DNA of 64,000 bases from the NCBI RefSeq assembly GCF_988242995.1, contig NZ_OZ547043.1; one strand, written 5' to 3'. The notes under the pieces were generated by a model that saw only the letters and a list, made by a program, of their open reading frames with translations, was not told the DNA's origin and did no database searches. Below are positions 37,522-45,831 of this stretch, piece after piece. Made by a program: the position numbers and the translations under genes. How positions within the stretch are numbered: the first letter of the stretch is position 1; every line of letters starts with the position of its first letter.

Positions 37522-37660
37522 CTCAAAATATTTTTACATTTTCTCATCATTATCACTACATTCCGCTTGTATTTTTCTTTGCCGTAATGATAATCGCTAT
37601 CACTGCGATTTACTTTTCTTTGCATAGATTGACTCAGAAAAACGTTTAAGGGTGGGTGGC

Positions 37661-38491
37661 ATGTTTGTTCCATTTCTCATTATGTTGCGCGAAGGACTTG
37701 AAGCCGCGCTGATTGTCAGTTTGATTGCCAGCTATCTTAAGCGTACCCAGCGAGGCCGATGGATTGGTGTGATGTGGATTGGCGTGTTGCTTGCCGCTGC
37801 GTTGTGCCTGGGCTTGGGTATCTTCATTAACGAAACCACCGGCGAATTTCCGCAAAAAGAACAGGAACTGTTTGAAGGTATCGTGGCGGTGATCGCCGTG
37901 GTGATCCTTACCTGGATGGTTTTCTGGATGCGCAAAGTGTCGCGCAACGTCAAAGTACAACTGGAGCAGGCAGTCGATAGCGCATTGCAGCGTGGAAATC
38001 ATCATGGCTGGGCGCTGGTGATGATGGTCTTTTTTGCCGTTGCAAGGGAGGGGCTGGAGTCGGTCTTTTTCCTGCTGGCGGCGTTTCAACAAGATGTCGG
38101 GATTTGGCCGCCGCTGGGTGCAATGCTCGGTCTTGCTACAGCCGTGGTGCTTGGCTTCCTGCTCTACTGGGGCGGTATTCGCCTCAATCTTGGTGCATTT
38201 TTTAAATGGACCAGTCTGTTTATTCTCTTCGTCGCCGCTGGGCTGGCAGCTGGTGCCATTCGCGCATTTCATGAAGCCGGATTGTGGAACCACTTTCAGG
38301 AAATCGCCTTCGATATGAGCGCGGTGCTCTCAACTCACTCGCTGTTTGGCACGCTGATGGAAGGGATTTTTGGCTATCAGGAAGCGCCAAGTGTCAGCGA
38401 AGTCGCCGTCTGGTTTATTTATCTCATCCCAGCGCTGGTGGCATTTGCGCTGCCGCCACGTGCAGGGGCGACAGCGTCTCGCTCCGCGTAA
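37661..38491 (+). CDS. efeU: ferrous iron permease EfeU (intact)
   Basis: 276 aa uninterrupted ORF from ATG 37661 (MFVPFLIMLREGLEA) with REGLE motifs. Confidence 0.85.
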   Translation: MFVPFLIMLREGLEAALIVSLIASYLKRTQRGRWIGVMWIGVLLAAALCLGLGIFINETTGEFPQKEQELFEGIVAVIAVVILTWMVFWMRKVSRNVKVQLEQAVDSALQRGNHHGWALVMMVFFAVAREGLESVFFLLAAFQQDVGIWPPLGAMLGLATAVVLGFLLYWGGIRLNLGAFFKWTSLFILFVAAGLAAGAIRAFHEAGLWNHFQEIAFDMSAVLSTHSLFGTLMEGIFGYQEAPSVSEVAVWFIYLIPALVAFALPPRAGATASRSA

Positions 38492-41275: not shown

Positions 41276-42340
41276 ATGGTAACGTCCTGTACTGGACATG
41301 TTTTAGATAATCAGCGCGCCACCACTCGCGGAGATTTCTCCTCCGGTAGCAACTTCGTCACTTTGTATTTTCAACCTCATCCTTTCTTTTCATGTGTTAC
41401 CGACGCCGTAAACGGTGCGCGTAGCCGTTTTTCGGCATTTTATCCAAAAGCAAACTATGGCTTACAAGGAAGCCAACCCTCTGATGTTCGTGCGCATAAT
41501 CGCGCTGCCAACGGCGCGTGTGATGAATACAAACAACTCAAGGTGCTCTCCATGGGAAGACAAAAAGCAGTGATCAAAGCTCGTCGCGAGGCAAAACGTG
41601 TGCTGAGACGGGATTCGCGCAGCCATAAGCAGCGTGAAGAAGAATCGGTCACCTCGCTTGTGCAGATGAGCGGCGTAGAAGCCATTGGTATGGCCCGCGA
41701 CAGTCGCGATACCTCGCCCATCCTCGCGCGAAATGAAGCGCAATTGCACTATCTGAAGGCTATTGAGAGTAAGCAGCTGATATTCGCCACGGGCGAAGCC
41801 GGGTGCGGAAAAACCTGGATCAGCGCAGCAAAAGCGGCAGAGGCCCTGATACATAAGGATGTCGACAGGATTATCGTCACCCGTCCAGTTCTGCAAGCCG
41901 ATGAAGATCTTGGCTTCTTACCTGGAGATATCGCAGAAAAGTTTGCTCCCTATTTTCGTCCGGTCTACGACGTGCTGGTCCGGCGCTTAGGGGCTTCCTT
42001 TATGCAGTACTGCCTGCGACCGGAAATAGGGAAGGTGGAAATTGCGCCGTTCGCCTATATGCGTGGACGTACCTTTGAAAATGCAGTCGTCATTCTTGAC
42101 GAGGCGCAGAATGTGACTGCCGCGCAAATGAAAATGTTTTTAACCCGCCTCGGGGAGAACGTGACGGTTATCGTCAACGGTGATATCACGCAATGCGATT
42201 TGCCTCGCGGCGTGCGCTCCGGATTAAGTGACGCGCTGGAACGTTTCGAAGAAGATGAAATGGTCGGGATCGTCCGATTCGGTAAAGAGGATTGCGTACG
42301 TTCGGCACTTTGCCAACGTACGCTACATGCATACAGTTAA
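41276..42340 (+). CDS. phoH: phosphate-starvation-inducible ATPase PhoH
   Basis: 354 aa, Walker A GEAGCGKT; translation may start at a downstream Met. Confidence 0.9.
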   Translation: MVTSCTGHVLDNQRATTRGDFSSGSNFVTLYFQPHPFFSCVTDAVNGARSRFSAFYPKANYGLQGSQPSDVRAHNRAANGACDEYKQLKVLSMGRQKAVIKARREAKRVLRRDSRSHKQREEESVTSLVQMSGVEAIGMARDSRDTSPILARNEAQLHYLKAIESKQLIFATGEAGCGKTWISAAKAAEALIHKDVDRIIVTRPVLQADEDLGFLPGDIAEKFAPYFRPVYDVLVRRLGASFMQYCLRPEIGKVEIAPFAYMRGRTFENAVVILDEAQNVTAAQMKMFLTRLGENVTVIVNGDITQCDLPRGVRSGLSDALERFEEDEMVGIVRFGKEDCVRSALCQRTLHAYS

Positions 42341-42357
42341 GTGTATTATCGGTACAG

Positions 42358-42388
42358 AGCCCGGGCGAACCGGGCTTTGTTTTATTTC
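42358..42388 (+). terminator. rho-independent terminator after phoH
   Basis: agcccgggcgaaccgggct stem followed by T-rich run. Confidence 0.7.
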
Positions 42389-42902
42389 ATTAACAGCAAA
42401 GACTTTCACTTCAGGTTAACGTTCAGGGGGGCGACTTTGAGCGTGTTGATAAGCTGAAATGAATTCTGGTTTAGATACTCTTACCAGGCATTTTTCGTCA
42501 TAGCACCCGACCAGTGTAATGCCGCCAGCGCGGAGAGTTTTTTGCCTATCTTTTTCCAGCCATTCAACCTGTACAGGAGGTCTGGTGCCAATTTTGCGTA
42601 TGAGGTTTAATCAGCAATGGGCCATAATTTGACTGACTGATTAACACCGAATATATTCTCCTGATTTTATTTTTTAGGGATAATATTAAAAATATAAGGT
42701 TAATCTTAATTAATTCTTCAGCTAATATTGTGTGTTGTTATTTTTTGTGGACGGCAAGCCGCAATGGCAAAATAGGTATGGTTGTAATAATCAAAACATG
42801 ATACTAACTATATATAGATCGTTGAATTGTTGGCATGTAACTCGCTACAGCGAGTAGCGTTAGTAATGAAATATAATCAACATGGATAGGTGAAGATTAA
42901 TT

Positions 42903-43589
42903 ATGAGCTTTATGGTTTTTGTAACTTGTTTGACAATTGCATTTGTCGCCGGTTTTGCTGTTGCCAGAAAATTGACACTCCGAAAAGTTGCCTCATCGGT
43001 AATCATCACTAGATCGCAACCAGTCCCTTCCTCTGCAACTTCCCCTGCGGCTAAGGCGTCGACAAGGAGCTATACACCGCAGAAAACCTATCGTGACTCT
43101 CGTTGGCAAGAACGAGATGAGTTGTTCCAGGGAATGGTTGCCGAAGGTATTTTATTGGAAGGAAAAGAGTGGTTAATTACGCGTTGTGAAAAAATTTATT
43201 TTGATAATCTGGAGAAATGGTTTGGACATTATTGTCATATCCATTGCCAGGTCTCTCTGGGGCGCTTGATCAACTTTCCAGAACAACCCGAGTTTAGCGA
43301 AGAAGAAAGAAAGCGTTTCTTTGCAATTTATAATGGAATGGCAATGGATTATGTTCTGGTTTCAAAGAAGAACAATAAAATAGTCTGTGTTATTGAGCTG
43401 GATGATCCGAGTCATGAAAGGGCAGATCGCATTATTCGTGACCGTTGGTTGAATACGATTATGACTATTGCACGGGTGCCTTTTGTACGAGCTTCTGTCA
43501 CTAAATTGGATGAAATCCCTCCGGTCTGGGATACCCGTGACAAAATTCGCCCATTAGCCGCGGCGACAAAGGGTGAACCGTTGCATTAA
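42903..43589 (+). CDS. membrane-anchored protein with DUF2726 / restriction-endonuclease-like C-terminal domain (accessory)
   Basis: 228 aa; N-terminal hydrophobic helix (FMVFVTCLTIAFVAGFAV); C-terminal DYVLVSKKNNKIVCVIELDDPSH resembles DUF2726; AT-rich 5' region. Confidence 0.7.
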   Translation: MSFMVFVTCLTIAFVAGFAVARKLTLRKVASSVIITRSQPVPSSATSPAAKASTRSYTPQKTYRDSRWQERDELFQGMVAEGILLEGKEWLITRCEKIYFDNLEKWFGHYCHIHCQVSLGRLINFPEQPEFSEEERKRFFAIYNGMAMDYVLVSKKNNKIVCVIELDDPSHERADRIIRDRWLNTIMTIARVPFVRASVTKLDEIPPVWDTRDKIRPLAAATKGEPLH

Positions 43590-43595
43590 CTAAGT

Positions 43596-43674
43596 ACCCC
43601 GGTCGGGGCTCCTCATCCCCCCGGTGTGTGCAATATACGAAAAAAAAGCCCGTACTTTCGTACGAGCTCTTCTT
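43596..43674. repeat. left copy of serX 3'-flank repeat (part A), interrupted by IS200
   Basis: 79 bp nearly identical to 44488-44565. Confidence 0.8.
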
Positions 43675-44385
43675 GTGCACAGAAAACCCCCAGCTAGGCT
43701 GGGGGTTCCGGAAAGCTTTCAGCTTTGAGCCAGTTATTAAAACCCCTTTTGATTTGTTAAAACACCTTGCGGTCTGGCAACTGCAAGTGTCAAACAAGAA
43801 ATCAAAAGGGGGTCCCAATGGGGGACGAAAAGAGCTTAGCGCACACCCGCTGGAACTGTAAATATCACATAGTTTTTGCGCCGAAATACCGAAGACTGGC
43901 GTTTTACGGAGAGAAGCGTAGGGCGATAGGCAGTATTTTGAGAAAGCTGTGTGAGTGGAAAAGCGTACGGATTCTGGAAGCAGAGTGCTGCGCAGATCAT
44001 ATCCATATGCTTGTGGAAATCCCACCCAAAATGAGCGTATCCGGCTTTATGGGATATCTGAAAGGGAAAAGCAGTCTGATGCTTTACGAGCAGTTTGGGG
44101 ATTTGAAATTCAAATACAGAAACAGGGAGTTCTGGTGCCGAGGGTACTATGTCGATACGGTGGGTAAGAACACGGCGAAGATACAGGACTACATAAAGCA
44201 CCAGCTTGAAGAGGATAAAATGGGAGAGCAGTTATCGATTCCCTATCCGGGCAGCCCGTTTACGGGCCGTAAGTAACGAAGTTGGATGCAAATGTCAGAT
44301 CGTGTGCGCCTGTTAGGGCGCGGCTGGTAACAGAGCCTTACAGGCGCATTTGAAAAACCTCCGGCTATGCCGGAGGATATTTATT
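43675..44385 (+). mobile_element. IS200-family insertion sequence (~711 bp, approximate ends)
   Basis: Left hairpin cccccagctaggctggggg, RBS-sequestering stem ccccttttgattt/aaatcaaaaggggg, tnpA, right hairpin cctccggctatgccggagg. Confidence 0.85.
43818..44276 (+). CDS. tnpA: IS200 transposase TnpA (HUH Y1 transposase)
   Basis: 152 aa from ATG 43818 (MGDEKSLAHTRWNCKYHIVFAPKYRR); HiH motif in ADHIHMLV, catalytic Tyr region GYYVDTVG. Confidence 0.9.
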   Translation: MGDEKSLAHTRWNCKYHIVFAPKYRRLAFYGEKRRAIGSILRKLCEWKSVRILEAECCADHIHMLVEIPPKMSVSGFMGYLKGKSSLMLYEQFGDLKFKYRNREFWCRGYYVDTVGKNTAKIQDYIKHQLEEDKMGEQLSIPYPGSPFTGRK

Positions 44386-44410
44386 TAAATATGGCGGTGA
44401 GGGGGGGATT
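44386..44410. repeat. left copy of serX 3' end repeat (part B): duplicate of last 19 nt of serX plus junction
   Basis: tttaaatatggcggtgagggggggatt vs tttaaagatggcggtgagggggggatt at 44564-44590. Confidence 0.8.
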
Positions 44411-44487
44411 GACTCGCTTCGCTCGCCCTGCGGGCAGCCCGCTCACTGCGTTCACGGTCTGTCCAACTGGCTGTCGCCAGTTGTCGA

Positions 44488-44590
44488 ACCCCGGTCGGGG
44501 CTTCTCATCCCCCGGTGTGTGCAATATACGAAAAAAAAGCCCGTACCTTCGTACGAGCTCTTCTTTAAAGATGGCGGTGAGGGGGGGATT
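44488..44590. repeat. right copy of ~104 bp direct repeat (serX 3' flank plus tRNA 3' end)
   Basis: Direct repeat of 43596-43674 + 44386-44410 with ~5 mismatches. Confidence 0.8.
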
Positions 44591-44659
44591 CGAACCCCCG
44601 ATACGTTGCCGTATACACACTTTCCAGGCGTGCTCCTTCAGCCACTCGGACACCTCACC
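44572..44659 (-). tRNA. serX: tRNA-Ser (anticodon GGA)
   Basis: 88 nt; minus strand reads GGTGAGGTGTCCGAGTGGCTGAAGGAGCACGCCTGGAAAGTGTG...GGGGGTTCGAATCCCCCCCTCACCGCCA with 7-bp acceptor stem, long variable arm, CCA encoded. Confidence 0.9.

Positions 44660-44853: not shown

Positions 44854-45831
<978 letters not shown>

Follow-up and report, generated by a model that had tools for sequence, protein, structure and literature searches.

A DUF2726 gene cassette replaces the pga island between phoH and serX in an Escherichia coli strain and probably retains an older gene order

The 64-kb stretch of DNA analysed here, which we refer to as the window, contains a short interval between phoH and the tRNA gene serX. 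The conserved left flank phoH (41276-42340, plus strand) is an open reading frame with a Pfam PhoH match (E = 1e-76) and 98.5% nucleotide identity to K-12 phoH; RefSeq uses a shorter form of the window gene, with 262 amino acids and a start at 41552. The gene is followed by a terminator made of a hairpin and a T-run (42354-42383, plus strand), which was located by a terminator scan and coincides with a blastn breakpoint. On the right, serX, coding for tRNA-Ser(GGA) (44572-44659, minus strand; ARAGORN and Rfam tRNA), ends the interval, and the open reading frame ghrA (ycdW; 44893-45831, plus strand; 98.8% nucleotide identity to K-12 ghrA) serves as the conserved right flank. The interval between the phoH stop at 42340 and serX measures 2,231 bp (42341-44571), which agrees with the roughly 2.2 kb given in an earlier note on this DNA, and comprises an intact DUF2726 gene, a single IS200 copy and RtT-like repeats. 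The first two had been described in the earlier note as the only contents; both are indeed present, but the repeats had been missed. The interval does not resemble a tRNA-associated integrative island because the open reading frames and Pfam searches reveal no integrase between 42341 and 44571.

The DUF2726 gene (42903-43589, plus strand) encodes a protein of 228 amino acids that is annotated by RefSeq as a 'DUF2726 domain-containing protein'. Residues 90-205 match the Pfam profile PF10881 with 66.9 bits (cut-off 24.7; E = 1.8e-18), which places the protein in this family. In this protein, an N-terminal transmembrane helix is connected by a disordered linker to a PD-(D/E)XK (restriction-endonuclease-like) core, and the DUF2726 family has been assigned to the PD-(D/E)XK group (PMC3424549). 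An alignment revealed the conserved motif D149...E165-L-D-D168..H171, with no variation at E165, D168 and H171 and almost none at D149. The AF2 model has an overall pLDDT of 78, with values of 86-97 in 10-residue blocks for the core (residues 91-210), and its best Foldseek matches are BstEII (E = 7e-4), TnsA and BsaWI. The model thus shows the alpha/beta core typical of restriction endonucleases, the acidic residues are conserved, and a nuclease activity is putative. The protein was also considered as a known defence factor or an otherwise named protein. This assignment was dropped, as the anti-phage defence models of PADLOC returned no family at E ≤ 1, NCBIfam gave no match and a sequence search of the PDB yielded only noise.

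The IS200 copy belongs to the IS200C family and spans about 711 bp (43675-44385, plus strand; right end ± about 5 bp), as delimited by its transposase, its leader and an empty site. Its tnpA gene (43818-44276) matches Y1_Tnp in Pfam (E = 8e-37) and is preceded by STnc490, the Rfam family of IS200 5'-UTRs (43685-43808; 146 bits). A Y1 (HUH) transposase, an element size of about 0.7 kb and a structured 5' leader are the hallmarks of the IS200/IS605 family. The repeat array was interrupted by a simple insertion of the element, as strain elppa4 carries the empty site lacking the approximately 711 bp. The same insertion has been annotated by RefSeq in strains 2022H047 and 2022H048 (in one of them as IS200C), and of 5,426 complete genomes of E. 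coli only two have IS200 at this site. The element separates two direct repeats on the minus strand. The partial one (43596-43674) is the outermost tandem copy downstream of serX and 98.7% identical to the serX-distal repeats of K-12. The complete one (44392-44529), which is annotated as 'RtT sRNA' by RefSeq in relatives, matches Rfam RF00391 with 41.1 bits (E = 7e-6), which does not reach the gathering score of 45, and includes 20 nt (44392-44411) that duplicate the 3' end of serX. The rtT repeats after tyrT (RF00391) are likewise tandem units of about 180 bp downstream of a tRNA gene, each of which duplicates the tRNA 3' end. However, the repeats in the window follow serX instead of tyrT, and the complete copy scores below the threshold. 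K-12 has three copies after serX, compared with one and a half copies here.

In K-12, the equivalent interval comprises 11,508 bp with the order phoH, pgaD, pgaC, pgaB, pgaA, dgcT, IS3D (insF4/insE4), ymdE, ycdU and serX, so that the order given in the earlier note is correct. The absence of the pga operon from the phoH-serX interval, which had been noticed from the letters alone, is confirmed by both the K-12 alignment and tblastn. Indeed, none of the K-12 queries PgaA, PgaB, PgaC, PgaD, DgcT and YcdU was matched in the whole 64-kb window (best E = 0.27, outside the interval), and PgaA, PgaB, PgaC and PgaD in particular lack any significant match by which a pgaABCD locus could be assigned. 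According to blastn, homology to K-12 stops on the left at 42383/42384, exactly at the end of the phoH terminator, and resumes on the right at 43595/43596. Position 42383 corresponds to K-12 position 1,086,099, which is located 7 bp ahead of the pgaD stop codon. Between the breakpoints, a haplotype-specific cassette of 1,212 bp (42384-43595, plus strand) takes the place of 10,861 bp in K-12 ranging from pgaD to ycdU. The locus is therefore a replacement and not a simple deletion. The GC content is 37% upstream of the DUF2726 gene and 43% within it, compared with 51% for the whole window. The phoH terminator forms the left boundary of the cassette, and copies of the tRNA 3' end are confined to the RtT-like repeats to its right.

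The distribution of both states was surveyed in the 5,426 complete E. coli genomes, with plasmids included for pgaC matches. The two states hardly ever occur together: 1,051 genomes (19%) have the DUF2726 segment and 4,382 (81%) have pgaC, at least one of the two is found in 5,395, and at most 38 genomes, equivalent to 3.6% of the DUF2726 carriers, match both. The carriers of the DUF2726 state include Shiga-toxin strains of serogroups O26 and O111. The suggestion that the region is a variable hotspot is well founded, since at least six arrangements were found at phoH-serX. The first is the K-12 type. The second is a long form of about 42 kb containing pga, dgcT, an EAL gene, fimbriae, a two-partner secretion system, a fatty-acid/PKS cluster and ycdU, and the third has a pga allele at the K-12 site that is only about 84% identical to that of K-12. 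The fourth consists of DUF2726 alone. In the fifth, DUF2726 is followed by an integrase island; in the O26 strain H19, this island starts after the RtT repeats, where serX and ghrA would follow. The sixth comprises pga deletions mediated by IS1 or IS3, as in USMARC-51688 (pgaD-IS1-ycdU), Z0117EC0148 (IS3-ymdE-ycdU) and E8 (pgaD/pgaC remnants, IS1 and a ycdU fragment). Such true IS-mediated deletions retain remnants of pgaD, ymdE or ycdU together with the junction IS and lack the full DUF2726 gene. In strain E8, pgaD is additionally joined in frame to the leftmost 217 bp of the DUF2726 haplotype, and this strain is best regarded as a rare product of illegitimate recombination; comparable partial matches to the DUF2726 segment occur in at most eight genomes.

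The fusion in E8 drew attention to a 64-codon open frame lacking a start codon (42420-42610, minus strand; six-frame translation), which was evaluated as a pgaD relic. This idea was rejected as unsupported. The frame has no Pfam match at E ≤ 10 and no BLASTP similarity to K-12 PgaD, its homologues are short E. coli fragments only, it is undetectable in Salmonella, and it is disrupted by stops and frameshifts in E. albertii and Escherichia sp. MOD1-EC7003. The frame is likely to be non-coding, or else a decayed remnant. With respect to the region as a whole, none of the complete genomes matches closely over its entire length (best full-length match 97.1%). The DUF2726 segment is closest to VCSW7 (99.3%), while the right flank is closest to HCP5S3_I2 (99.7%), which carries the long pga island. 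Since segment and right flank have different closest strains, the comparison indicates that the region is a recombination mosaic.

Outside E. coli, the phoH-serX interval was compared in Salmonella enterica and E. albertii. Strain NBRC 107761 of the latter is colinear with the window (efeO-efeB-phoH-DUF2726-serX-ghrA-ycdX-ycdY), and its DUF2726 gene is 88.6% identical at the nucleotide level, which lies between the extremes seen for the flanking genes (86.0-93.4%). In S. enterica, the order is putP-phoH-DUF2726 (72% amino acid identity)-rve-serX-ghrA-ycdX-ycdY-ycdZ-csgG. The pgaABCD genes are located away from phoH in all three non-Escherichia genomes examined, namely Citrobacter werkmanii, Enterobacter and a record labelled Salmonella enterica; in the latter, they adjoin a run of CsiD, DAO-family, aminotransferase, permease and GntR genes resembling the gab-csiD region. 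PgaC identity to K-12 is flat at 63-71% across Enterobacter, Citrobacter, Erwinia, Serratia and a record labelled Ectopseudomonas mendocina. The second pga haplotype, which is about 84% identical to K-12, adjoins phoH in E. coli-like genomes, and pga at this locus is therefore also old within Escherichia.

The absence of pga-ycdT-IS-ymdE-ycdU between phoH and ghrA has already been published. Goldstone et al. (2016, Sci Rep, PMC4951805) described a heterogeneous region between efeB/phoH and ghrA/ycdXYZ that extends from pgaABCD to ycdU and reported it to be missing from about 10-20% of E. coli strains of phylogroup A. Flanks and missing genes are the same as for the pga-less DUF2726 form, which accounts for 19% of the 5,426 genomes here. 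However, the passages of that article on the region treat presence or absence of the island only; the DUF2726 filler is not mentioned, and neither is the shared gene order in E. albertii and Salmonella. Likewise, the E. coli strains Tob1, Fec101 and B-8638 were described as lacking pga, ycdT and the IS element between phoH and csgG, with serX, ghrA, ycdX, ycdY and ycdZ being kept (Cimdins et al. 2017, MicrobiologyOpen, PMC5635171). That description was based on draft genomes and, in the section on this locus, names no replacement gene or evolutionary direction; the authors suggested a phage-derived acquisition of pga. By contrast, vertical inheritance of pga with phoH in Enterobacteriaceae and loss in Salmonella were inferred in a third study (Echeverz et al. 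2017, PLoS Genet, PMC5464674). Salmonella shares the phoH-DUF2726-serX-ghrA order of the window, and the pga-less E. coli haplotype thus resembles the Salmonella state. As pga occupies loci unrelated to phoH in the Citrobacter, Enterobacter and Salmonella-labelled genomes, any loss in Salmonella need not have happened at phoH-serX.

Taken together, the window contains the E. coli phoH-serX hotspot in the form of the 'DUF2726 haplotype', probably an old backbone state kept as a minority allele. The pga-less form most likely represents the older backbone gene order rather than a recent deletion, because the order phoH-DUF2726-serX-ghrA is also present in E. albertii and S. enterica. The hotspot accommodates two main alternative cassettes. 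In about 19% of the complete E. coli genomes, the space from the phoH terminator to the RtT-like repeats is filled by the low-GC gene for the predicted membrane-anchored, PD-(D/E)XK-fold DUF2726 protein, and most other strains carry an island of 10-42 kb extending from pgaDCBA and dgcT through ycdU. The cassettes were presumably swapped between strains by homologous recombination in the flanks, with phoH on the left and the repeats, serX and ghrA on the right, and the IS200 copy probably entered the repeat array later.

An alternative that starts from an ancestor with both pga and DUF2726 (phoH-pgaDCBA-...-DUF2726-serX) is a counterpoint to DUF2726 having been there first. According to this scenario, which we regard as unlikely, the lineage of the window, E. 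albertii and Salmonella lost pga independently, and most E. coli lost DUF2726. It would account for the two deeply diverged pga alleles, both beside phoH, and for the junction in E8, and it agrees with the vertical descent of pga inferred by Echeverz et al. (PMC5464674). The genomes matching both markers, of which E8 is the one inspected, also fit. However, a tandem of both complete cassettes was seen in no genome inspected, the 64-codon frame is unlike PgaD or anything outside E. coli, pga is found at unrelated loci in other genera, and at least four independent losses would be required. Far less probable is a recent deletion, in which an IS-mediated or illegitimate event removed pgaDCBA through ycdU from a K-12-type ancestor. 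Such events are known at the locus from USMARC-51688, Z0117EC0148 and E8, and an IS200 copy sits in the interval. This explanation is largely refuted by the 1,212 bp, including an intact gene, that have no K-12 counterpart, by the failure of tblastn to find a pga or ycdU remnant in the window, by the rarity of the IS200 insertion and its intact empty site in relatives, and by the same arrangement in E. albertii and Salmonella. Finally, repeats and an IS element can break assemblies, but a collapsed or mis-joined pga island is extremely improbable, as exactly the same junction sequences occur in numerous independent complete genomes, whether these contain IS200 (2022H047 and 2022H048) or not (elppa4, VCSW7, ST2747 and others), and the short arrangement is present in hundreds of them. 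The statement that the locus lacks the K-12 operon holds as a description of absence. It also suggests a loss, whereas the evidence favours an alternative, probably older cassette shared with E. albertii and Salmonella.

Relatives of the DUF2726 protein, 44-54% identical, are encoded inside type VI secretion system (T6SS) clusters, either between tssA and tssF or adjoining vgrG. Because of this location, the protein may be a stranded T6SS component. A broader reading joins an ancient cross-species cassette polymorphism, an ancestral DUF2726, a later insertion of pga displacing it in most E. coli and a DUF2726 protein that is a stranded T6SS accessory or immunity-like factor; we put it forward tentatively, as a combination that is rather doubtful as a whole.

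The match of the pga-less form to the Salmonella and E. albertii order adds direction to the published presence/absence pattern, and 'loss of pga' is therefore probably the wrong description for these strains; the direction also affects the interpretation of the missing pga genes in Salmonella. The pga-less state itself occurs in about a fifth of the complete E. coli genomes and is an ordinary polymorphism of the pan-genome. The prediction that the strain cannot make PGA from the phoH-serX locus is upheld by the tblastn results and by the near exclusivity of pgaC and DUF2726. That the strain makes no PGA at all is a well-supported prediction, based on the 64-kb window and the population counts. 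A strain predicted to lack PGA/PNAG and the diguanylate cyclase DgcT is relevant to biofilm phenotypes and to PNAG-directed vaccines and antibodies. Judging from the function of pgaABCD, its biofilm matrix would rely on curli and other polymers in place of the PGA synthase and export machinery and DgcT. The csg genes for curli are located about 3 kb downstream in the window.

The window represents a segment of the E. coli chromosome with the gene order putP-efeUOB-phoH ... serX-ghrA-ycdXYZ-csg. Between the end of phoH (42340) and the tRNA-Ser(GGA) gene serX (44572-44659, minus strand), an interval of 2,231 bp contains five features, namely the phoH terminator hairpin (42354-42383), an AT-rich stretch of 519 bp with 37% GC (42384-42902), an intact 228-aa ORF for a DUF2726 protein (42903-43589; Pfam match, E 1.8e-18), an IS200 element (~43675-44385) with a Y1 transposase gene (43818-44276) and an IS200 leader of the STnc490 family (146 bits), and one and a half copies of RtT-like repeats (43596-43674 and 44392-44529). 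In the complete repeat (44392-44529), 20 nt of the serX 3' end are duplicated. The earlier note had described this interval correctly, in coordinates and in content, leaving only the RtT-like repeats unmentioned. The K-12 gene order that it gives also agrees with the MG1655 record, in which phoH is followed by pgaD, pgaC, pgaB, pgaA, dgcT, IS3D, the ymdE pseudogene, ycdU and serX, and in which the interval spans 11,508 bp as compared to 2,231 bp in the window.

A blastn comparison with K-12 placed the left breakpoint at window position 42383 (K-12 position 1,086,099), where the phoH terminator ends and 7 bp remain before the stop codon of pgaD, and the right breakpoint at 43596, where the serX-distal RtT-like repeats begin. 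Between the breakpoints, 1,212 bp of the window have no counterpart in K-12 and 10,861 bp of K-12 have none in the window. Therefore, the difference is a cassette replacement and not a clean deletion. The GC content of both cassettes is below average (37-43% in the window cassette and 44.8% in the K-12 island; whole window, 51%). Moreover, tblastn searches with the K-12 proteins PgaA, PgaB, PgaC, PgaD, DgcT and YcdU detected no homologues in the 64-kb window. Together with the breakpoints, this confirms that pgaABCD is missing from the phoH-serX locus.

The frequencies of the two cassettes were determined in 5,426 complete E. coli genomes. The 1,212-bp DUF2726 segment gave a match in 1,051 genomes (1,043 at ≥80% coverage) and pgaC in 4,382 (4,321 at ≥80% coverage), while a concatenated query revealed either marker in 5,395 genomes; at most 38 carry both and 31 carry neither. 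Among the carriers of the DUF2726 segment are the O26:H11 strain H19, O111 strains, O166:H15 and ETEC from pigs, together with poultry, soil and human isolates. The rarity of pgaC among these carriers served as a stand-in for the DNA of the source genome outside the window: since at most 38 of the 1,051 carry both markers, the chance of a pgaC match anywhere, plasmids included, is ≤3.6%. This value and the lack of Pga homologues in the 64 kb support the previous suggestion that the strain probably cannot make the exopolysaccharide poly-N-acetylglucosamine (PGA) from this locus.

The polymorphism was already known from two reports. In the part of the study by Goldstone et al. that covers the region, efeB/phoH and ghrA/ycdXYZ are described as its flanks (PMC4951805). 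According to the corresponding part of Cimdins et al. (2017), the strains Tob1, Fec101 and B-8638 lack ycdT (dgcT), the pga operon and the IS between phoH and csgG and retain serX and ghrA through ycdZ (PMC5635171). Unlike the present analysis, these parts of the two reports mention neither the DUF2726 gene nor the synteny with other genera. Thus, the pga-less state of the phoH-serX locus is a common, published pan-genome polymorphism.

Comparison with other species bears on the direction of the change. The type strain of E. albertii has its genes in the same order as the window (efeO-efeB-phoH-DUF2726-serX-ghrA-ycdX-ycdY), and its DUF2726 gene shares 88.6% nucleotide identity with that of the window, as co-divergence with the flanking genes predicts (efeB, 90.4%; phoH, 93.4%; ghrA, 86.0%; ycdX, 86.6%). 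Salmonella enterica has the order putP-phoH-DUF2726-(rve-type gene)-serX-ghrA-ycdX-ycdY-ycdZ-csgG, with amino acid identities to the window of 72% for DUF2726, 95% for PhoH and 78% for GhrA. In all three non-Escherichia genomes examined for it (Enterobacter, Citrobacter werkmanii and a record labelled Salmonella enterica), pgaABCD is located at loci unrelated to phoH. The next-closest PgaC relatives with a named source form a flat band of ~63-71% identity, which covers Enterobacter, Atlantibacter, Erwinia, Serratia and Citrobacter and extends even to a record labelled Ectopseudomonas mendocina. It is most parsimonious to regard phoH-DUF2726-serX as the older gene order and the window cassette as a probably ancestral alternative rather than the product of a loss. 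While the absence of the K-12 pga operon stands, the loss implied by the earlier note is thus not borne out by the synteny with E. albertii and Salmonella. The pga island would have taken the place of DUF2726 in the lineage from which most E. coli descend, and the older form would have persisted as a minority allele moving by homologous recombination. The latter part of this proposal fits the mosaic identities around the locus, where the nearest strain differs between the left flank, the cassette and the right flank.

In the main competing explanation, an ancestor would have carried both cassettes and reciprocal losses would have followed; in its favour, the pga genes next to phoH also show deep divergence within Escherichia. 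A second pga haplotype, with ~84% nucleotide identity to K-12 (PgaC, 95% amino acid identity), is adjacent to a phoH gene that shares 97% identity with that of the window (phoH-pgaDCBA-dgcT contigs, loci L027 and L029). It corresponds to 80 records of complete genomes with 80-90% identity, a divergence that is roughly genus-level within genomes labelled E. coli.

Genuine pga deletions do occur in E. coli, but they look unlike the window: pgaD-IS1-ycdU in USMARC-51688; IS3, a ymdE fragment and ycdU in Z0117EC0148; and pgaD/pgaC fragments, IS1 and a ycdU fragment in E8. A pgaD relic would have proved a deletion, and strain E8 suggested a candidate, a minus-strand frame at 42420-42610 that is open over 64 codons and has no start codon. 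In E8 (L018, 5954-6500), its equivalent is fused in frame with a K-12-type pgaD at codon ~81, so that 217 bp of the left segment of the DUF2726 haplotype stand in place of the last 162 bp of pgaD; the parental sequences share no detectable homology at this junction. The frame was not counted as evidence because it has no similarity to PgaD and no Pfam match. Furthermore, no homologues were found outside E. coli; in E. albertii and Escherichia sp. MOD1-EC7003 the frame is interrupted by frameshifts and stop codons, and Salmonella has no detectable counterpart.

The IS200 element is not the cause of the pga absence. It is a simple insertion into the RtT-like repeat array, as strain elppa4 shows the empty site. 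Only two of the 5,426 genomes, the near-identical 2022H047 and 2022H048, carry IS200 at the identical position; their copy (L002, 8399-9109) is 96.2% identical to that of the window, and the adjacent DUF2726 gene 95.8%. The similar divergence of element and gene is compatible with an old insertion as well as with repeated targeting of one site next to the RtT-repeat hairpin. The array consists of tandem units of ~180 bp following serX, each with a copy of the tRNA 3' end (window 43596-44590; L001, 16962-17584), of which K-12 has three and the window one and a half. RefSeq labels these units 'RtT sRNA, processed from tyrT transcript', although it is serX that they stand behind.

Several differing arrangements between the same flanks support the view that the phoH-serX region is a variable hotspot. 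For instance, strain HCP5S3_I2 (L006/L023) has a long form of ~42 kb from phoH to serX, with pgaDCBA, dgcT, an EAL-domain gene, a chaperone-usher fimbrial operon, a two-partner secretion pair, a fatty-acid/polyketide-type cluster and ycdU. The cluster ends next to ycdU in an ACP S-malonyltransferase gene, whose place is taken in K-12 by the ymdE pseudogene, and in Z0117EC0148 a truncated ACP S-malonyltransferase is annotated at the ymdE/ycdU position. Thus, ymdE looks like a remnant of the terminal transferase gene, and the K-12 island like an IS3-truncated derivative of the long form. In the O26 strain H19, an integrase gene comes directly after DUF2726 and two RtT repeats, at the place otherwise taken by serX and ghrA.

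The DUF2726 protein (228 aa) is of full length when set against its relatives. In its AlphaFold model (mean pLDDT 78), a hydrophobic helix at the N-terminus (residues 3-30) is followed by a disordered linker (28-56) and an alpha/beta core predicted with confidence. The top structural matches, with weak scores, are BstEII (E 7e-4), TnsA and BsaWI, which have the restriction-endonuclease fold, in agreement with the published assignment of DUF2726 to the PD-(D/E)XK superfamily (PMC3424549). E165, D168, H171, R176, R179 and D180 are invariant in the alignment and D149 is nearly so; no defence-system model matched the protein. Relatives with 44-54% identity lie inside type VI secretion system (T6SS) clusters (L019/L020, 9001-9660; L021, 9001-9636), one in the order tssM-tssA-DUF2726-tssF-tssG-tssJ-vgrG. 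Another, from an Erwinia genome, immediately precedes vgrG, and a third is located in a Dickeya integrative or conjugative element. An ImpA_N/VasL gene is also present ~4 kb downstream of the phoH-linked copy of Salmonella (L010, 7001-13272). Based on these neighbourhoods, we only hypothesise that the predicted membrane-anchored PD-(D/E)XK protein might have a T6SS-related role.

Two further observations concern the left flank. The Rfam family Ysr251, a Yersinia antisense sRNA, strongly matches the minus strand of the window at 42142-42335 (192.8 bits; gathering score, 100). The match runs in antisense orientation to the phoH 3' end and may only reflect the conservation of the phoH coding sequence. 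Finally, efeU is apparently intact in the window (279-codon ORF, 37652-38491), while K-12 carries it as a frameshifted pseudogene.
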